DNA from: Escherichia coli
Lineage (GTDB): Bacteria > Pseudomonadota > Gammaproteobacteria > Enterobacterales > Enterobacteriaceae
Reading direction: 5' to 3' (one strand)
Assembly: GCF_009931435.1 (NCBI RefSeq)
Contig: NZ_CP043414.1
DNA length: 64,000 nucleotides
Each line of letters opens with the position of its first letter. Positions within the stretch are counted from its first letter, which is position 1. Below are positions 49,398-59,010 of this stretch, one piece after another. The notes beneath the pieces were generated by a model. The model was not told the DNA's origin and did no database searches. It worked only from the letters and a program-made list of their open reading frames with translations. A program made the position numbers and the translations under genes.

Positions 49398-49485
49398 GGA
49401 AGTGTGGCCGAGCGGTTGAAGGCACCGGTCTTGAAAACCGGCGACCCGAAAGGGTTCCAGAGTTCGAATCTCTGCGCTTCCGCCA
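49398..49485 (+). tRNA. serT: tRNA-Ser (anticodon UGA)
   Basis: 88-nt sequence GGAAGTGTGGCCGAGCGG...TTCGAATCTCTGCGCTTCCGCCA with long variable arm and cuUGAaa anticodon loop. Confidence 0.95.
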
Positions 49486-50510: not shown

Positions 50511-53096
50511 TTATACCTGCGATACGTTAAACCATGTGCCGTTTATGTATTTTTGCACCGGCCGGTAAACCGCTGAGTTATCGCCATCAGCATCCCCGAC
50601 AAGACAAAGCCCCGTAATGACATGGCCGGACTTCTCATACGTCACGCCTTTTTGCATGCCCTGAACAACACGCGTACCCAGCCGGATATCCCTGACATAG
50701 CGGATATCAAAATTACTGTAATCGGAAGGATTAACGCGCCCGGACACATTCAGCCCTTTACTGACCTGAATGCTGCCGTTTGTAAAGCGCATTACACGTG
50801 CGTTACCGGCGTAAACATCAAGATTACCGTCGCCGTTTTGTTTCAGGCCTGTGTCGCCCCTCCCCAGCGCAAGTGAATGACCGCCCAGCGTATTCTGTGC
50901 ACCGATACCCACCGCGCCATCCAGGGTCCCGCCCGTTGTCGTGAACAGACGCTCCCAGTCCGCCTCAAAGCCATAGCCATCACGGGCGGAGCGGTAAAAT
51001 ATCCCGCCATTCCGGTAATTCACCCGAAACTGGACCGCAGGGCAGCTGCCTTCCCCTGTATTAAAATGAAGAATTAAGGATGATGCGCCACCATCCTGTG
51101 CACAATAAGCGCCACTGTCCAGGTTCCAGGCGACGGCATCTGTATCGGCGAGCGTTTCCCCGGTTTTTCCCAGCGCAAAGGCCGGTGGCTTGTTTTTCGT
51201 GTTGTAGTCACGACGCCAGCCAGGGGAATAACCATCACCATGATTAATATAGGTAAACTGCGCATTCGCCGTTCCACTTCCGCTGGATGTTGTCGGTGTG
51301 GTTATGCGGATCGTCATCGCTGACTTTATCCCCATCACCTCAATGACAGCGCCGGCGAGATGAATATTTCCGCAGCCCGTATCCGTGATGATTTTATTAT
51401 TACCGTAAGACCAGGAGCCCTTGCACATCCAGTATGGGTGGTTAAATGCGCCCTGAGACTCCAGCCACCCGATAAACTGTGCGGTCGTCCAGTCTCCTGT
51501 CGTTGTGCTTACGGCCCCACCGAAAGCACGGCAGGCACCAATATTTTTCGTAAAGGTGTCTTTGTCGGGGACATCCGCACCGTTCTTATCTTTCTGCAGT
51601 CGTTTCTCAGCATTCTCACAGGCGGCTTTTACTGCCTTTGGTGTTGCCGCCAGTGACTCGGAAGTGCTGTTGGTTGCACTGCTGAGCTGGACTATCCCCT
51701 TTTTCGTCGTGCTCGCATCCTCAAGCGCCACGGCAGACGCAATATCCTCCGCCCGTTTTGCCGCAGTCTCAGCGCGCGTTGCCGCGGATTCTGCCGTGCT
51801 TTTGCTCTGTGCTGCCGCTGTCGCACTGCCAGCTGCCTCTGTCGCCTTCGCGGATGCCGTCGTGGCACTGCCCTGCGCCTCTGACGCCAGCCTTGCCGCC
51901 TCATCTTTTGAAGCTGACGCCGATGATGCTGATGACGCCGCCGAACTGGCGGACGATACGGCTGCCGTTTTTGAGGATTCTGCGCTGGTTTCCGACGCTT
52001 TCGCGTTCGTCTCGGATGTCCTCGCAGCGGAAGCAGACCTCGCTGCTGCAGTGGCCTGTTCAGTGGCTTCGCCAGCCTTCGTTGTGGCTGCTGAAGCGGA
52101 CGATGCGGCGCTTTCTGCCGATTTTCCGGCGGCGGTGGCACTGGCTGAGGCCTCCTCCGCTTTAACTGACGCCTCACGGGACGATGATGCAGCGGCAGTT
52201 TCTGAGCCTGCTGCTGCGGAGGCACTCTGTTCCGCTGCCGTTTCAGAAGACCTGGCGTTCGTCTCAGACGTCTTTGCCGCCTTCGCGGAATTTCCTGCCG
52301 CCGTTGCCGAGGAAGCTGCGCTACCGGCGCTCGAGGCTGCGCTCGTTTCTGATGATTTTGCCGCCTCTTTTGAGGCCGCCGCATCCCTGGCTGACGTGGC
52401 AGCTTCTGACGCTTTCGTGGTCGCGGTGGATGCAGACGTGGCGGCTGATTGTTGTGACGCTGCCGCATTCGTTTCTGACGTTTTCGCGGCACCGGCACTG
52501 GTGGCCGCCGCGCTTTTTGAGGACTCTGCAGCGGCAGCACTTTTTGATGCCTCAGCGGCCTTTGCTGAGGCTGTTTCTGCGCCGGAAGACGCTTCCTGAG
52601 CCGACGTCGCAGCCTGTCCGGCGGACGTGCTGGCGGCGCGTGCTGAGTCCGCAGCATCAGTCGCATGGGTTGCCGCCTCACGGGCTGATGTACCGGCATC
52701 GCTGGCGGATTTTTTCGCGGCTGCCGTGTTCTGTGCCACTGCGGACGCGTTACGCGCCACCTCTTCCACCATCAGTTCAAAACGGCGCAGTGCCTCCGGA
52801 CGGGCATCATCCTCCGTCATGGCACCGAGAAAATCATTCAGCGTACCGGGTTGGGAATCTTCATACACGGTGATGGTCCCGGCATGTGAAGGCGGAAAAC
52901 CGTCAACCAGCAGGATGACACCGTACTGGCCGTACTCAACGTCCATACTGTAACGCCCGGCTTCATCCGGATTTTCTGAGGCCACCGTGTTCACCACCAC
53001 CGTGGTACTGTTACGTTTTGCTTTCAGCTGAATGGTGCAGTTCTGTACCGGTTTACCTGCACCGTCTTTCAGCACGCCTGAAATCTTTACTGCCAT
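50511..53096 (-). CDS. stf: Side tail fibre protein Stf with long Ala/Ser/Thr-rich repeat region
   Basis: 861-aa ORF; conserved N-terminus (MAVKISGVLKDGAGKPV...), central about 350 aa low-complexity repeats, distinct C-terminal domain. Confidence 0.85.
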   Translation of the reverse strand: MAVKISGVLKDGAGKPVQNCTIQLKAKRNSTTVVVNTVASENPDEAGRYSMDVEYGQYGVILLVDGFPPSHAGTITVYEDSQPGTLNDFLGAMTEDDARPEALRRFELMVEEVARNASAVAQNTAAAKKSASDAGTSAREAATHATDAADSARAASTSAGQAATSAQEASSGAETASAKAAEASKSAAAAESSKSAAATSAGAAKTSETNAAASQQSAATSASTATTKASEAATSARDAAASKEAAKSSETSAASSAGSAASSATAAGNSAKAAKTSETNARSSETAAEQSASAAAGSETAAASSSREASVKAEEASASATAAGKSAESAASSASAATTKAGEATEQATAAARSASAARTSETNAKASETSAESSKTAAVSSASSAASSASSASASKDEAARLASEAQGSATTASAKATEAAGSATAAAQSKSTAESAATRAETAAKRAEDIASAVALEDASTTKKGIVQLSSATNSTSESLAATPKAVKAACENAEKRLQKDKNGADVPDKDTFTKNIGACRAFGGAVSTTTGDWTTAQFIGWLESQGAFNHPYWMCKGSWSYGNNKIITDTGCGNIHLAGAVIEVMGIKSAMTIRITTPTTSSGSGTANAQFTYINHGDGYSPGWRRDYNTKNKPPAFALGKTGETLADTDAVAWNLDSGAYCAQDGGASSLILHFNTGEGSCPAVQFRVNYRNGGIFYRSARDGYGFEADWERLFTTTGGTLDGAVGIGAQNTLGGHSLALGRGDTGLKQNGDGNLDVYAGNARVMRFTNGSIQVSKGLNVSGRVNPSDYSNFDIRYVRDIRLGTRVVQGMQKGVTYEKSGHVITGLCLVGDADGDNSAVYRPVQKYINGTWFNVSQV

Positions 53097-53154: not shown

Positions 53155-56100
53155 TCAACTGATACTGATACCGGCTGTGGATTTCTTCATCACCACAACC
53201 AGCAAATCGCTGATGCTTGCCGTGGGATACCAGTCATTCACCAGCCACGCTGATACCGAAAACTCCAGCGTCATGTGACCGCGACCCGCTGGCATATCAA
53301 TCACACCTGTATAAATCAGCGTATTATCCAGCGCGGTACGGTTATAAATTTCAGCACCGTTTTTCCGCACTATCAGACGGCATGATGAATAAATGTCATT
53401 ATGCTCTCTCTCATGTCTGGCACCGCTGAATGCCACCGCCGGAATGACAATTTGCCGGTCAAAAGGCTGATCGTCATAAACCCTGACGGTGATGGTCCCT
53501 GATGGCCACCGTTCCGGTGCACGGGAGTCCCGGGGGAAAGGTTTACCCACTGTTTTAACGAGATCGCCTTCAATCTGGTTGGCGGACAATTTTCCCAGAA
53601 CCCGACAGTTCTCGTTAATCGTGACGTTGTTGAGCGTCCCGGAGTTCGCATTCACGTTACCGCTGATATCGGCATTTTTAGCAGTCAGCTTTCCGTCCGG
53701 TGTCAGGGAAAAGGCCGGGGGATTGCCGCCGCTGGTAATGGTGGGGGCCGTCAGGCGCTTCAGGAACACGTCGTTCATGAATATCTGATCGCCCTGACCA
53801 ACAAACATCGGTTTTGTGTTGCCATTCGCAGGATTAACCATCGCAATCCTGTCCGCCGCCAGCAGCACCTGACTCTGCATGCCGTCAGGGGTGTTCTCAA
53901 TACCGGCACCAATACCCGCGATATAAAGGCGTCCGTCCTGCATCTGCTGCAGCTTCACAGCCCACATGCTGTTCAGGTTATTATTTGTATCAACCTGAAC
54001 CTTCTGTATCTGCTGAATTGCCGCACTCTGGTCTTCCAGTTTCTTATTGACGGTCTGTGTGATTTCATTGCTGACATCCGTAATGGACGTCCTGATTTCA
54101 GCCAGATCAGGCGCCAGCTGACCGTTATCAATCTGCGTCCACAGCTCCTGAGCCAGATGGGTTTTTCCTATCTCGCCTTTGAAAAAATCCAGATAGCCGG
54201 ATGCATCATCACTCGGCTGACCAACAGCCTCCACGAATGCCGATTTGCCAACGGTGTTCACACTGCGGATATAAAAGTAATAATCATGGCCCGGTTTGAT
54301 ATTGATACTGGCGGCTATCCAGTACAGCGCCGTGCCAAGATAGCGTGCTGTGGTTTCAACCTGCCTGATATCCGCAATCCGCTTTTCCGAGAACCAGAAC
54401 TCAAACTGTACCGTCGGATCATAAACCGCAAGATGCGGCGTGGCGGTTATCTGAAAATAGCCCGGCGTCAGCTCAATCCGCGACGGCGCTGCCGGTGCGG
54501 CAATCCGGAACGATACCGACGCCGGATCGCCCTGCTGCCCCCACGCATTTACTGCCCGGACTGTCAGCCTGTAGTTCCCCAGCGCCAGTTGTGTGAAGCG
54601 GTAAGTGGTTTCCGTCGTCCGGGCCGTGCTGACCAGCCACTCACTGCCGTCATCCGCTGTTACGGTCAGACGGAGCAGGAAGCTCACGCCCTTCACCACC
54701 TTCGGCGTGTCCCAGCGCGCCAGCACCTGATATTCCCCGCTGTCTGCGGTGACTTCGGCAGTCAGGTGCTGCACCGCTGGCGGCGTGACACCATTCACCG
54801 TGCCGCTCTGGTCGCCGTCAAAGTGCGCCCCGTTATCCACGATGGCTTCTTTTTCCGGTACATGCTGCACGGCGGTGATGGCATACGTGCCGTCGTCGTT
54901 CTCACGGATACTCACGCAGCGGAACAGGCGCTGGCGCAGCGTCGGCAGCTTCAGCCCCCACACGCTGTATTCAGCAACGCCGTCAGGAACACGGCTCACT
55001 TTCACCTTCACGCCGTCGGTGACGGACTGAACCTCCACGCTGACCGGATTGCCACTTCCGTCAACCAGGCTTATCAGCGTGGTACCGGAGGATGGCAGCG
55101 TGATTTCACGGTCGAGCGTCAGCGTCCGGGTCTGGCTGTTTACCGCCAGCACGCGCCCGCCGGTGCTGATACCGGCATAGTCATCATCACAGATTTCAAT
55201 GACATCGCCCGGCACATGGCGAAGCCCTTCTGCGCCCACGCTGAAGTCCACGGTCTGCGTTTCCAGCAGTTCTGTTTTAATCAGCCATAGCCCGGCGCGA
55301 TGTGCCTGCCCCCGGCTGGTACAGCCAAAGGCATCCATCTTCGTGACGTTACGACCGTAACGGGCAATGGCCTGCGTGTCCTCCACAAGCTCTGTCGCCG
55401 TCTCCCAGCCGTTATTCGGGTCAATCCAGTTCACCTCAACGGCATTATGGCGGTCCTTCAGGGCGCTGAAGCTGTAGCGGAACGGCGCGCCATCATCCGG
55501 CATCACCACATTACTGCGGTTATAGGTCCACACCTTATCTGATGGTCGGTCCTGCACGAACGTCAGCGTCTGCCCGTTCCATACCGGCATACAGCGCATC
55601 GCCGAGCAGAAATCACTGAGCACATCCCACGCCTTGCGCTGTGTTGTCAGGTAAGCGTTACAGGTGATGCGCGGCTCCGTGCCACCAAAGCCATCCGGCA
55701 CCGACTGGTCGCAATTCTGGCCGATGACATACAGCGCCCATTTGTCCACATCCGCCGCACCGAGACGCTTCCCCATGCCGTAGCGCGGATGGGTCAGCAT
55801 ATCCCACAGACACCAGGCCATGTTGTTGCTGTATGCCGGTTTAAACGTCCCGTCCCAGATACCGCTGTATTGCCGCGTCTGCGGGTTATAGTTCGACGGC
55901 ACCTGCAGAATGCGCCCGCGAAGATGATAATTACGGCTCACCTGCTGGCTGCCGAACTGCTCCGAATCCACCTGCACGCCGACCAGTGCCGTGTTCGGGT
56001 AGCACTGTTTCACATCGATGATTTCGGTGTATGACGACCAGAGCGTTTTGTTCTGCAACTGGTCTGTGGTGCTGTCCGGTGTCATCCTGCGCATCCGGAT

Positions 56101-56694: not shown

Positions 56695-57336
56695 TCAGCG
56701 ACCAATCACCACAACCTGACCACCATCACCTTCATCTGCTGTGCTGATCTCCTGAGAAACCACACGTGATCCCACGCGCATTTCACCGTACAGAACGGGC
56801 AGAACATTGCCCTGGGCAACCATATTATCCAGTGAAGAAAAATAGGTGTTCTGTTTGCCGTTATCCGTTGTCTGTGTGCGGGGGGTTTTGGGTTTAGGGG
56901 CCAGCATCTGTGCAACACCGCCAAGCGTCATACTGGCACCGAGAGAAAACAGCAGATTACTCGCCATAATTCCTACCCCCGGCATCCATATAGCAACCGC
57001 CATAACAGCCGCCCCCAGCACAGCCTGAAACACACCGCCACTTTTGGCTCCTGCCAGACGCGGCACGATGTGGATCACAGCACCATTTGCCAGCGGTTCA
57101 TTAAGACGGGCTGATAATTCGTTTTCACCTGTATCACGCCCGGCAATCCGTATCTGATACCAGCCATCGCTCAGTTTCTGACGAAACGCCGGGAGCTGTG
57201 TGGCCAGTGCCCGGATGGCTTCAGCCCCCGTTTTCACACGAAGGTCGATGCGGCGACCAAATCGTTGTAAATCCCCGTAAAGGCAGATGCGCGCCATGCC
57301 CGGTGACGCCAGAGGGAGTGTGTGCGTCGCTGCCAT
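56695..57336 (-). CDS. I: Tail assembly protein I
   Basis: 213-aa ORF, lambda I-like; 5' end overlaps K, exact start uncertain. Confidence 0.8.
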   Translation of the reverse strand: MAATHTLPLASPGMARICLYGDLQRFGRRIDLRVKTGAEAIRALATQLPAFRQKLSDGWYQIRIAGRDTGENELSARLNEPLANGAVIHIVPRLAGAKSGGVFQAVLGAAVMAVAIWMPGVGIMASNLLFSLGASMTLGGVAQMLAPKPKTPRTQTTDNGKQNTYFSSLDNMVAQGNVLPVLYGEMRVGSRVVSQEISTADEGDGGQVVVIGR

Positions 57337-57977
57337 TTGTCGGTGTACCTCTCTCGTTTGCTCAGTTGTTCAGGAATATGGTGCAGCAGCTCGCCGTCGC
57401 CGCAGTAAATTGCGGCGTGATTCGGCACCGATGAACCAAAACAGCACAGCAGCACATCGCCCGGCTGCGCCGCTGACAACGGCACCTGATACAGCCCCGT
57501 CGCCTCCAGATTATCCAGATAGAGATTCTGGCCGTTACGCCACCAGTCATCCTCACGATGAAAGTCCGGCATCTCAATCCCCGCCAGATGATAAGCATCC
57601 CGGAACAGTGTGTAACAGTCCGTCACACCGTGCTCAAAGCGCCGCCCGGTGAGATGCGGCACACAGCGGAACTTATGAATCGTCCCCCGGCAGACCAGCC
57701 ACCACGGCAAATCACTCTGCACCTGCAGCCGCCGGTCGGCCTCACTCAGCCAGGGCAGACCACCGGGGTGGCTGTGGACCAGCGCCACAATCTCACCCTG
57801 CATTTCTGCCTGCAGCCAGTCTTCCGGCGACATACGGAAATACGCCTCCGGCTCACCGGAGATATTCACGCAGGGGAAATATCTTTCCCCCTCCGGCGTG
57901 CTTACCACGAAGCCGCACGACTCCGCTGGCGCACATCGCCGGGCGTGCGCCAGAATCGCTGATTCTGTCTGTGTCAT
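57234..57977 (-). CDS. K: Tail tip assembly protein K (JAMM/MPN plus NlpC/P60 peptidase motifs)
   Basis: HSHPGGLPWLSEAD (HxHx7SxxD) and downstream Cys/His (DCYTLF...HAAIY) motifs. Confidence 0.8.
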   Translation of the reverse strand: MTQTESAILAHARRCAPAESCGFVVSTPEGERYFPCVNISGEPEAYFRMSPEDWLQAEMQGEIVALVHSHPGGLPWLSEADRRLQVQSDLPWWLVCRGTIHKFRCVPHLTGRRFEHGVTDCYTLFRDAYHLAGIEMPDFHREDDWWRNGQNLYLDNLEATGLYQVPLSAAQPGDVLLCCFGSSVPNHAAIYCGDGELLHHIPEQLSKRERYTDKWQRRTHSLWRHRAWRASAFTGIYNDLVAASTFV

Positions 57978-57982
57978 GGGAT

Positions 57983-58681
57983 TTACTGCGAAAGTTTGTT
58001 AATGGAAAGGAAGCCGCCAAAGTTGCCGACGTTATTGCGGAACTTACAACCGCTCAGGCATTTGCTGCATTTATCCTTCGTGATATCGGACGTTGGCTGG
58101 TCATATTCATCCGCGACAGCCGGACCGCTATAACCGCACTCGTCACCGCGATAGGTCCAGGTGCAGGTGTTGGCCAGCATGATACGTCCCGGAAAAACAG
58201 CGCCATCCGTTTCCGTCGGCGTGGACAGTACAAAGGAGGCACTCACCGCGCTCAGTTCGCTGCACTGCTCAATGCGCCAGCGGCTGATCACCTCCTGCTC
58301 CGGATCGGCATAACTGTTTCCGTTGACGAAGTTCACCGCATCCAGAAAACGGGCGTAAACCTTACGCCGGACCACCGTTCCGCCGACCAGACTCTGCATA
58401 TCTTCCGCCATCCCGGTGACCATACCGTACAGGTTAGAAACCGTCAGCGTGGGGCGCGTACTGGTGCCTTTGCCATTCAGTTCAAAACCGCTCCCCTGAA
58501 TGGGATACGGCTGATACTGTCGCCCCTGCCAGGTGACCGGCTCACCTTTTTCGTTCTGCTCATTACAGAAAAAATAACGTTCTCCACCGACCTCTGTCAG
58601 GTCGATTTCCCAGAGCACCACGCTGGCCGACTGCTCCGCACGGGTGCATTCATTCAGTGTTTCCTGCCGGATATCCTGCAT
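57983..58681 (-). CDS. L: Minor tail protein L
   Basis: 232-aa ORF, lambda L-like, C-terminal Cys cluster. Confidence 0.85.
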   Translation of the reverse strand: MQDIRQETLNECTRAEQSASVVLWEIDLTEVGGERYFFCNEQNEKGEPVTWQGRQYQPYPIQGSGFELNGKGTSTRPTLTVSNLYGMVTGMAEDMQSLVGGTVVRRKVYARFLDAVNFVNGNSYADPEQEVISRWRIEQCSELSAVSASFVLSTPTETDGAVFPGRIMLANTCTWTYRGDECGYSGPAVADEYDQPTSDITKDKCSKCLSGCKFRNNVGNFGGFLSINKLSQ

Positions 58682-59010
58682 CAGTTCACCACCTGTTCAA
58701 ACTCTGCGCTGAACTCAACACGCAGCATACTGACCCGCGACGACCATTTTGCGCAGGTCACCTTTATCTGCCGCCACTCATAAGGCGGCGTCCACAGAAA
58801 GGATTTCCAGCCCCCGTGCTCTTCCAGAAACGACTCCAGTACCGTGGCCTCCTCACGGGGGACAGAAAGCGTCACGCTGTACGTTTTCAGGTTGGCATTC
58901 AGCCCGGCAGGCGCTCGCTGGGAATAGCCATCACCAAAGCGCACCTTTCTTACAGAAGGGACCGAAGCCACATCCATACCGGGTTTCACTTTCCAGCGGA
59001 AGGTCTTCAT
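58681..59010 (-). CDS. M: Minor tail protein M
   Basis: 109-aa ORF, position and size as lambda M. Confidence 0.85.
   Translation of the reverse strand: MKTFRWKVKPGMDVASVPSVRKVRFGDGYSQRAPAGLNANLKTYSVTLSVPREEATVLESFLEEHGGWKSFLWTPPYEWRQIKVTCAKWSSRVSMLRVEFSAEFEQVVN

Follow-up and report, generated by a model that had tools for sequence, protein, structure and literature searches.

The K and I tail genes of a lambda-type prophage in Escherichia coli: start codons, a 103-nt overlap and predicted processing of I by K

The closest described counterparts of the gene pair discussed here are genes K and I of bacteriophage lambda. Both the K/I arrangement and a K protein with two protease domains are already described (Iyer 2006; lambda annotation). 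Iyer 2006 (PMC1779556) described the JAB and NlpC/P60 domains of lambda K and predicted cleavage by the JAB domain at the C-terminal glycine of a ubiquitin fold. The lambda reference annotation (NC_001416) places K at 14276-14875 and I at 14773-15444. Lambda virions do not contain gpK, and gpI is resolved in them only from residue 101 or from residue 134/135; cryo-EM shows gpI residues 135-223 as a plug in the tail lumen beneath the C-terminus of gpH (gpI structures are available as PDB 8iyk, 8iyl, 8k35, 8xcg and 9e7m).

The corresponding pair was analysed in a stretch of 64,000 nucleotides of an E. coli contig (NZ_CP043414.1, assembly GCF_009931435.1), called the window below, where two minus-strand ORFs with ATG starts overlap.

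57234..57977, minus strand: gene K, tail tip assembly protein, 247 aa (ORF, Pfam JAB and NlpC/P60), stop codon TGA at 57234-57236
56695..57336, minus strand: gene I, tail tip assembly/plug protein, 213 aa from its first ATG, ATG1 (ORF, match to PDB 8iyk chain I)
57234..57336, minus strand: K/I overlap, 103 nt, I in the -1 frame relative to K (ORF coordinates); equals lambda 14773-14875

The two starts lie 641 nt apart (641 mod 3 = 2), which places I in the -1 frame relative to K. An earlier note on this DNA had reported that the 3′ end of K runs over the 5′ end of I by about 100 nt in different frames, and the ORF coordinates put this at 103 nt (57234-57336), as in the lambda annotation. Because both products carry Pfam domains, K and I are real genes and their overlap is no artefact of a chance ORF. 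The gene order H-M-L-K-I-J, the overlap length and the frame relation are those of lambda, and the DNA of the K/I junction is identical to lambda throughout the aligned stretch; all the marks of the lambda-type overlap are present, namely 103 nt, I in the -1 frame and a Shine-Dalgarno (SD) sequence for I inside K. We consider it very likely that an E. coli prophage carries here the standard K-I pair of lambda-type tails, with K starting at 57977 and I at 57336, with a predicted processing of I by K and with the overlap serving as packing. About 80% of complete E. coli genomes (4392 of 5426) carry the K-I module.

Differences from lambda are few. I is almost the same as lambda gpI over its first 102 and its last ~90 residues, and it is 213 rather than 223 aa long because its hydrophobic middle region is shorter and divergent; J has 1159 aa in the window and 1132 in lambda, and K has 247 aa against 199 in RefSeq lambda, a 1-nt difference. 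The architecture agrees without difference with that described by Iyer 2006: K carries JAB and NlpC/P60, I carries a ThiS/MoaD-like fold with a terminal glycine, a Gly-rich linker and a C-terminal domain, and the two genes are adjacent beside J.

Profile matches and conserved residues in the sequence support K as a two-peptidase protein, JAB/JAMM and NlpC/P60.

57666..57971, minus strand: JAB/MPN+ domain of K, aa 3-104 (PF14464 Prok-JAB, E 6e-14, 52.3 bits, profile positions 3-112 of 114)
57921-57923, minus strand: E19 of K, upstream catalytic residue of the JAMM motif (homologue alignment)
57735..57776, minus strand: JAMM zinc-site motif H68-S-H70-x7-S78-x2-D81, K residues 68-81, HSHPGGLPWLSEAD (motif match)
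57306..57647, minus strand: NlpC/P60 (C40) papain-like peptidase domain of K, aa 111-224 (PF00877, E 6e-13, 49.2 bits, full profile 1-105)
57615-57617, 57417-57419 and 57381-57383, minus strand: NlpC/P60 residues C121, H187 and H199 of K (alignment)

Both scores exceed their cut-offs (a curated 25 bits for Prok-JAB PF14464; 23 bits for NLPC_P60 PF00877), and PDB 2kks aligns to K residues 7-105. On the JAB side, K combines a full-domain profile match with the complete motif EXnHS/THX7SXXD in the definition given by PMC300881. Residues E19, H68, S69, H70, S78 and D81 are invariant across six homologues of 29-86% identity, and D120-C121, N186-H187 and H199-H200 do not vary among homologues in the same identity range, so that the second domain shows both the profile match and the conserved Cys and His of the NlpC/P60 family (MEROPS C40). 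The conserved Cys and His residues would belong to the catalytic triad of this family. The AF2 model of K has a mean pLDDT of 83.5, with residues 1-48 folded as part of the JAB domain. The reading of the 247-aa K as a carrier of JAMM as well as NlpC/P60 residues, proposed earlier, is thus borne out by Pfam domains above cut-off and by invariant residues. A literature search found no report of enzymatic activity for gpK.

The starts of K and I had been called uncertain, and public annotations are indeed inconsistent, with K ranging from 199 to 247 aa (199, 211, 233 or 247 in different records) and I from 182 to 223 aa. For K, this uncertainty is mostly resolved in favor of ATG 57977 and a protein of 247 aa.

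57975..57985, minus strand: L stop codon TAA (57983-57985), 5-nt spacer ATCCC and K start ATG (57975-57977); junction conserved in the K-region alignment
57843, minus strand: G missing in lambda RefSeq NC_001416, after its position 14266 (alignment and ORF check)

From the upstream stop to residue 24, ATG 57977 stands alone among ATG, GTG and TTG codons in the K frame, and it is the sole start codon that yields the entire JAB domain. No SD sequence lies ahead of it; given this and the 5-nt spacing from the L stop, translation of K is presumed to be coupled to that of L. An unbroken 247-codon frame is present in lambda DE3, HK630, KT232076, PhiR30_1, mEp460 and VT1-Sakai, and five independent lambda-group records keep it, whereas RefSeq lambda has one G fewer; K is annotated there as 199 aa because this one absent G breaks the frame. 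Among IMG/VR contigs, the 25-mer without the G occurs in none and the 26-mer containing it in 57. A literature search turned up no correction to lambda at position 14266. The notes accompanying commercial lambda DNA presumably list an inserted G there.

The alternative that K has 199 aa from M49 (57833), being an NlpC/P60 peptidase only with the upstream JAB-like part outside K, draws on a strong SD upstream of M49 (GGAGG at 57845-57849, -9.5 kcal/mol) and on the annotation in NC_001416, DE3 and HK630. However, the last two records annotate 199 aa despite an intact 247-codon frame in their own DNA, and the G missing from the reference is missing nowhere else. The K frame is open and conserved from 57977, upstream of M49, and residues 1-48 fold into the JAB domain (AF2, pLDDT ~90). 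The JAB Pfam match spans residues 3-104, and the catalytic E19 lies upstream of M49, so that an internal start there would leave the JAB domain catalytically incomplete; M49 itself is not conserved, being Ile (ATT) in VT1-Sakai. This start was rejected and is, in our judgement, very improbable. Because the RefSeq record is one base short, its 199-aa K is a misleading alignment reference. Comparison with lambda, which had been suggested as a check, returns the same 103-nt overlap.

Gene I would encode a 213-aa precursor. Its leader would be followed by a ubiquitin fold of the MoaD/SAMP type, then by a Gly-rich linker and a pair of hydrophobic helices, and finally by a C-terminal plug, which would sit in the tail-tip lumen below the C-terminus of the tape-measure protein.

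57046..57297, minus strand: ubiquitin-like beta-grasp domain of I, aa 14-97 (PF06805 Lambda_tail_I, E 4e-24, 85.4 bits)
57031..57060, minus strand: Gly-rich linker of I, R93-LAG96AKSG100G101-V102, predicted cut site of the ubiquitin-like domain (conservation; Iyer 2006)
56902..57039, minus strand: two hydrophobic helices of I, aa 100-145 (AF2 helices 100-117 and 123-145)
56698..56967, minus strand: plug region at the C-terminus of I, aa 124-213, with hardly a difference from the resolved part of lambda gpI (PDB 9e7m and 8iyk alignments)

The profile score lies above the Lambda_tail_I PF06805 cut-off of 23.8 bits, and the beta-grasp (residues ~13-97) is modeled with an AF2 pLDDT of 91-97. The best Foldseek matches of the I model, with TM values normalized by target length, are SAMP1 (2l52, E 9e-4, TM 0.68) and MoaD (1fm0_D, TM 0.74, rmsd 2.1), and ubiquitin and SUMO rank after them. 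The homologue alignment has an invariant P92, a G96 conserved in at least 90% of sequences, the consensus GAKxxG and, in the C-terminal part, invariant N171, G176, G184 and G189. I therefore shows the profile, the beta-grasp fold and the succession of terminal Gly, Gly-rich linker and C-terminal domain that characterize TAPI (PF06805). The two helices correspond to H1/H2 of PMC11101478, where they are putative membrane-inserting elements. PDB 8iyk chain I (lambda gpI) matches the window protein over residues 1-213 with E 8e-109.

The comparison of I sequences and their upstream regions indicates that I most probably starts at ATG1 (57336). Public records give I 223/213 aa (ATG1), 200 aa (ATG14) or 190/182 aa (GTG34).

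57348..57355, minus strand: Shine-Dalgarno sequence for I, GAGAGAGG, within K codons R-E-R (CGA GAG AGG), 11-nt gap to ATG1
57298..57336, minus strand: 13-aa leader of I, MAATHTLPLASPG, clade-specific and weakly constrained
57295..57297, minus strand: alternative I start ATG14 (200-aa model, 64-nt overlap), the choice of PGAP
57235..57237, minus strand: alternative I start GTG34 (GTGA over the K stop; 180-aa model here, 190/182 aa elsewhere), the choice of other records

Inspection of ribosome-binding sites, also proposed earlier as a check, finds the only good SD of I before ATG1 and none before the K start at 57977. The predicted duplex of the I SD with the 16S rRNA 3′ end has -9.4 kcal/mol, next to -9.8 for J, -10.2 for L and -10.3 for H, and compares with -1.5 kcal/mol for ATG14 and -2.7 kcal/mol for GTG34. 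ATG1 is invariant in all 161 loci of the lambda-type and Sakai-type clades, and GAGAGG of the SD, including the AGG Arg codon of K, is kept in the 161 loci of the two clades. Part of the ATG1 invariance is forced, since ATG1 spans the K codons AAA-TGG (Lys-Trp), where only the choice of AAA or AAG is free. The I frame is open from 57369 in the window and opens just one codon ahead of ATG1 in VT1-Sakai; a run of 13 codons without a stop has roughly an even chance of arising, so that the open frame ahead of the domain carries no weight of its own, and it is the comparison of related loci that supports the long start.

A start at ATG14 (57297) would give 200 aa and a 64-nt overlap, the 13 upstream codons being K coding sequence left open by chance. 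The first Met aligns with M14 in 24 of 33 diverse homologues, most of which lack the leader, and the Pfam model of I starts at residue 14. No secondary structure is predicted for residues 1-12 of the leader (residues 1-10, mean AF2 pLDDT 62), and six of the nine differences between lambda and Sakai types in I codons 1-13 fall at K wobble positions; as the substitutions between clades track K wobble positions, the leader sequence is not selected as protein. PGAP also annotates a 200-aa I in near-identical E. coli genomes (the P0007 cluster, 1198 members). However, ATG14 has no SD (-1.5 kcal/mol), the AGG codon inside the SD of ATG1 is retained by both clades, and codon 14 is ATG in only 80 of the 161 loci, with CTG in 80, all of which have ATG1 and its SD, and GTG in one; CTG is found even in one lambda-type locus, L023. 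We therefore regard ATG14 as an unlikely sole start of I, and initiation there, alone or besides ATG1, as possible in lambda-type phages that have this codon, including the one in the window. The 56 distinct lambda-type junction sequences contain four polymorphic sites, two of them common and I-synonymous and two of them singletons and K-synonymous, too small a set for judging the 13-codon leader; setting lambda types against Sakai types is more informative.

Four-nucleotide overlaps of stop and start codons are common in phage operons. A start at GTG34 (57237) would create one (GTGA), with termination-reinitiation coupling and an I of 180 aa, and this is the start annotated in KT232076, mEp460 and PhiR30_1 and used by Goulet 2020. 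It would nonetheless remove residues 1-33, and with them strand 13-19, helix 21-26 and most of strand 29-34 (model pLDDT >90) as well as the invariant G21 and the nearly invariant G27; GTG34 also has no SD, and distant I homologues without a K overlap still start at the equivalent of M14. We hold this reading to be highly unlikely and retain ATG1. No gpI N-terminal sequence or peptide-level mass-spectrometry data were found in the literature; a published virion mass-spectrometry table has one gpI peptide of unspecified sequence.

All candidate starts of I overlap K by at least 4 nt, so that a layout with K and I apart is not found here. The 103-nt overlap would be compact operon packing with no recoding role, and its DNA would be used twice: the I ribosome-binding site would lie in K, and the last 22 residues of K would share their DNA with the first strand of the I ubiquitin fold.

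57237..57302, minus strand: C-terminal tail of K, aa 226-247, RAWRASAFTGIYNDLVAASTFV, coded entirely within the K/I overlap (predicted helix 230-244, AF2 pLDDT 58-77)

The K stop lies 61 nt beyond the first base of I codon 14 in 155 of the 161 lambda-type and Sakai-type loci. The suggestion in the earlier note that such an overlap is typical of lambdoid phages holds for lambda and for the Stx-phage/VT1-Sakai type, to which an overlap of ~100 nt is common, but not more widely: an extra gene and a terminator separate K from I in HK75 and a Mannheimia phage, and the overlap is 0-20 nt in Serratia Rovert, Pectobacterium Koroua and T1-like aaroes. The K tail motif F-x-G-I-x-N-D is also present in K of the Mannheimia phage, where K and I do not overlap. 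An ancestral overlap resolved by duplication was considered for that phage; the -1 frame of its K tail, checked for a decayed I-like reading, is full of stops, has no likeness to I and gives no sign of such an origin.

Programmed -1 frameshifting in the overlap, comparable to that of the upstream G/GT, could in principle produce a K-I fusion of JAB, NlpC/P60, ubiquitin fold and plug. I is in the -1 frame of K and open from 57369, natural K-I fusions have been reported (Iyer 2006, PMC1779556), and fused NlpC/P60-I ORFs occur in three E. coli genomes (P0003, P0004 and P0057). These fused ORFs, however, are singletons without the JAB domain and look like the outcome of small-indel frame changes a short way ahead of ATG1, and I has a strong SD and an ATG of its own. 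No X_XXY_YYZ heptamer in the K frame was found across the open region in scans of the window and VT1-Sakai. The only homopolymer run of at least four in the window overlap is GGGG, within the codons of the conserved YGD of I. We give frameshifting almost no credence. A further idea is that phages with both ATG1 and ATG14 make two gpI isoforms, or that indels or slippage near the (GA)3 tract of the SD yield an occasional K-I fusion whose JAB domain would act in cis on the ubiquitin fold. Its basis is no more than the way the two frames lie, the few fused ORFs and the ATG14 kept by half the clade, and we think it quite improbable. If it were true, the overlap would set the K:I ratio or serve as an assembly checkpoint, beyond mere packing.

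The locus is a routine prophage tail module, and the main value of its analysis is annotation hygiene, as shortened K and I gene models are widespread and hide biology. The 199-aa model of K loses half of the JAB domain, the catalytic Glu included, and the 190/182-aa model of I cuts away the first strands of the ubiquitin fold. Working from shortened models, the Goulet 2020 structural survey recognized in gpK no more than "a peptidase domain" and left an alpha-beta motif of gpI unassigned. Any test of the twenty-year-old prediction of JAB cleavage calls for correct models, with K at 247 aa and I beginning at ATG1 or no later than ATG14.

Taken with the domain analysis above, this prediction leads us to propose that K probably processes the ubiquitin-like tail-plug protein I. 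K would act as a 247-aa assembly factor absent from the virion, with JAB/JAMM at its N-terminus and NlpC/P60 at its C-terminus. During tip assembly, its JAB domain would cut I at the conserved glycines G96 to G101, after which the C-terminal part of I would stay in the tail and K would leave the structure. Since the ubiquitin-like domain is the N-terminal part of I itself, such a cut would hit a peptide bond and not an isopeptide bond.

Two known systems invite comparison. Eukaryotic and archaeal JAMM deubiquitinases of ubiquitin-like proteins (Rpn11, CSN5 and AfJAMM) have the EXnH(S/T)HX7SXXD motif in common with K, and the SAMP/MoaD partners of JAMM enzymes have the same beta-grasp ending in glycine as the presumed substrate domain of K; unlike these systems, the K/I pair of the window involves no E1- or E2-like genes. 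The F-pyocin is described in a preprint (bioRxiv 10.64898/2026.02.24.707460), and its plug protein PA0640 (PDB 25vf chain 9) matches I of the window with E 8e-24. As in lambda, the mature particle retains no more of the plug protein than its C-terminal part; stalled precursors still contain the N-terminal domain of PA0640, which is removed on maturation, and PA0639, the gpK homologue, is needed for tip assembly and absent from particles. When PA0640 is expressed alone in E. coli, host proteases trim its N-terminal region. The F-pyocin differs from the prophage of the window in being a tailocin and not a phage, and its authors did not identify the responsible protease; because such a cleavage has now been shown, with its protease left unassigned, the question of cleavage by the JAB domain of K is timely again.

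K and I belong to a minus-strand series of lambda-type tail genes, in which M, L, K and I match their expected families in Pfam.

Tail genes of the prophage around the K/I overlap
61568-59007, minus strand: H, 853 aa
59010-58681, minus strand: M, 109 aa
58681-57983, minus strand: L, 232 aa
57977-57234, minus strand: K, 247 aa
57336-56695, minus strand: I, 213 aa
56634-53155, minus strand: J, 1159 aa

The 3′ end of K and the 5′ end of I have 103 nt in common (57234-57336), with I in the -1 frame relative to K, which bears out the earlier note's overlap of about 100 nt in different frames. The observation is correct, and the arrangement is known and ubiquitous. Of 5426 complete E. coli genomes, 4392 carry the 1.4-kb K-I region (median two copies per carrier genome), and the 2.1-kb L-K-I region is present in 242 phage records. 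Long ORFs also run antisense to L (57971-58783, plus strand, 270 aa; open in lambda too, L004 328-1140) and to J (54157-55290, plus strand, 377 aa), most likely as a non-coding side effect of the GC-rich genes opposite. The sole tRNA gene in the window, a tRNA-Ser (anticodon TGA) at 49398-49485 on the plus strand, lies ~1 kb past 50511-53096, the last of the large minus-strand ORFs downstream of J, and may mark a prophage boundary or attachment site.

K had further been described as carrying both JAMM and NlpC/P60 peptidases, and this holds: Pfam places Prok-JAB at residues 3-104 (E 6e-14) and NLPC_P60 at residues 111-224 (E 6e-13), both above the curated cut-off. All elements of the JAMM motif are present (E19, H68-S-H70, 7 residues, S78, 2 residues, D81), in agreement with the definition EXnHS/THX7SXXD (PMC300881). 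Its residues are unchanged across six K homologues (29-86% identity), as are D120-C121, N186-H187 and H199-H200 of the cysteine peptidase domain. In an AlphaFold model of K built from a shallow alignment of six sequences (mean pLDDT 83.5), residues 1-48 fold into the JAB domain (pLDDT ~90) and the tail encoded in the overlap (residues 226-247) forms a helix predicted with moderate confidence. Since this tail shares F-x-G-I-x-N-D with the non-overlapping K of a Mannheimia phage, it is probably authentic K sequence.

The ATG at 57977 is the only start codon of K that yields the entire JAB domain. It lies 5 nt past the stop codon of L and lacks a Shine-Dalgarno sequence, features that suggest translational coupling of K to L. 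The lambda RefSeq record NC_001416 annotates K at 199 aa, starting at M49, because one missing G closes the frame upstream (GGAGGC-TATTT, L004 1255-1280; after lambda position 14266, corresponding to 57843 in the window). Lambda DE3, HK630, KT232076, PhiR30_1, mEp460 and VT1-Sakai possess this G, and their 247-codon frame is unbroken; in IMG/VR, 57 contigs contain the 26-mer with the G and none the 25-mer without it. The catalytic Glu would be missing from a K of 199 aa, M49 is not conserved (the codon is ATT in VT1-Sakai), and the frame break is a single-base discrepancy in RefSeq lambda; the shorter K was thus rejected. Even DE3 and HK630 are annotated with 199 aa although their own DNA encodes 247. 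Alignment to lambda K, proposed earlier for fixing the start, is therefore misleading, and users of the RefSeq K should be warned that it is cut short. Separately, in mEp332 (L002) and in the record L045 a G run inside K is one base shorter (GGAGGGGG to GGAGGGG, equivalent to ~57885-57893), so that the in-frame ORF is 233 aa, as mEp332 annotates; the cause may be either a sequencing error in the homopolymer or a true frameshift.

The I frame is open from 57369 and offers three candidate starts, numbered by codon.

Candidate starts of I
57336, minus strand: ATG1, GAGAGAGG with an 11-nt gap (-9.4 kcal/mol); K overlap 103 nt; 213 aa
57297, minus strand: ATG14, no ribosome-binding site (-1.5 kcal/mol); K overlap 64 nt; 200 aa
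57237, minus strand: GTG34, no ribosome-binding site, its GTGA overlapping the K stop; K overlap 4 nt; 180 aa

Whichever is used, the two genes overlap. The start of I was rightly called uncertain, as public records are split: ATG1 is used for lambda, mEp332 and VT1-Sakai, ATG14 in PGAP E. coli genomes (200-aa clusters) and GTG34 in KT232076, mEp460 and PhiR30_1. Inspection of ribosome-binding sites favored ATG1, whose -9.4 kcal/mol compares with -9.8 to -14.0 for neighboring genes. GTG34 was set aside; it would remove residues 1-33 including the invariant G21, and distant homologues without a K overlap still start at the M14 equivalent.

Between ATG1 and ATG14 the call is closer, and ATG14 is a possible additional or alternative start. 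The first Met falls at the M14 position in most full-length relatives of 34-47% identity (1.8 billion cluster representatives searched) and aligns with M14 in 24 of 33 diverse homologues, and the 13-residue leader is modeled as unstructured. Against this, 161 lambda-type and Sakai-type loci without exception retain ATG1 and, in its Shine-Dalgarno sequence, the core GAGAGG, whereas their codon 14 varies (80 ATG, 80 CTG and one GTG). Most of ATG1 is constrained by K, since it lies on the K codons AAA-TGG. The AGG Arg codon of K within the Shine-Dalgarno sequence, a rare codon in E. coli, is kept in both clades while nearby K wobble positions differ, and the I frame of VT1-Sakai opens just a single codon ahead of ATG1. 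Within the 13-codon leader, six of nine differences between clades are at K wobble positions; the leader changes from MAATHTLPLASPG to MATTNAFCLASPP while K reads KWQRRTHS(L/V)WRHR. We consider ATG1 quite probably the functional start in the window. Our reading is that M14 is the ancestral N-terminus of the family and that the lambda and Stx clade gained an upstream start, ATG1, which functions throughout this clade and adds a leader free to vary. The analysis also yields gene models, K 57977-57234 and I 57336-56695, with ATG14 as fallback.

Recoding to a K-I fusion by frameshifting was also rejected: no slippery heptamer was found in the overlap, and fused database ORFs are few, singletons and without JAB. 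Three such ORFs from E. coli genomes (P0003, P0004 and P0057; 335-337 aa) link the NlpC/P60 portion of K to a complete I through differing peptides (KRERYRQM, KREVHRQM, KREVYRQM; equivalent to window ~57340-57356), a pattern compatible with separate small indels within GAGAGAGG/ACAC, immediately before ATG1. Since all three lack JAB, they probably represent decaying prophages. On the minus strand, GGGAAAG occurs at ~62001, 433 nt before the start of H, where the programmed -1 frameshift site of lambda G/GT is expected; another copy within K, at 57889, is in the wrong phase for slippage.

A structure model of I from 34 diverse homologues shows no secondary structure at residues 1-12, a confident beta-grasp at 13-97 (pLDDT 91-97), nearest to SAMP1 and MoaD (Foldseek TM 0.68-0.74) and then to ubiquitin and SUMO, and helices at 100-117 and 123-145. 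The fold ends with an invariant P92 and a nearly invariant G96 in LAG96AKSG100G101. Iyer et al. (2006; PMC1779556) predicted that the JAB domain of K frees the ubiquitin-like domain through a cut at the C-terminal glycine of this fold. All sequence features of the window agree with that model but contribute no new evidence for it. In the lambda literature virions lack gpK, and gpI is resolved solely from residue 101 (PMC11101478) or, in other structures, from 134/135; the C-terminal ~90 residues of I are nearly identical to the part of lambda gpI resolved by cryo-EM as a plug in the tail-tip lumen. In the F-pyocin, the gpK homologue is needed for tip assembly (bioRxiv 10.64898/2026.02.24.707460).

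The view that the overlap is typical of lambdoid phages stands for lambda- and Stx-type tail modules but not for K/I pairs in general. In HK75 (L092 667-988) and Mannheimia phage 1152AP2 (L087 733-1000), K and I are kept apart by a small additional gene together with an annotated terminator, and no overlap remnant is visible in the Mannheimia phage K/I region. Additional genes seem to become inserted at the K/I junction. Rovert has a 1-nt gap, and the overlap is 10 nt in Koroua and 20 nt in the T1-like aaroes. Lambda itself (NC_001416; K 14276-14875, I 14773-15444) has the same overlap as the window, and the junction DNA is identical along the aligned stretch.
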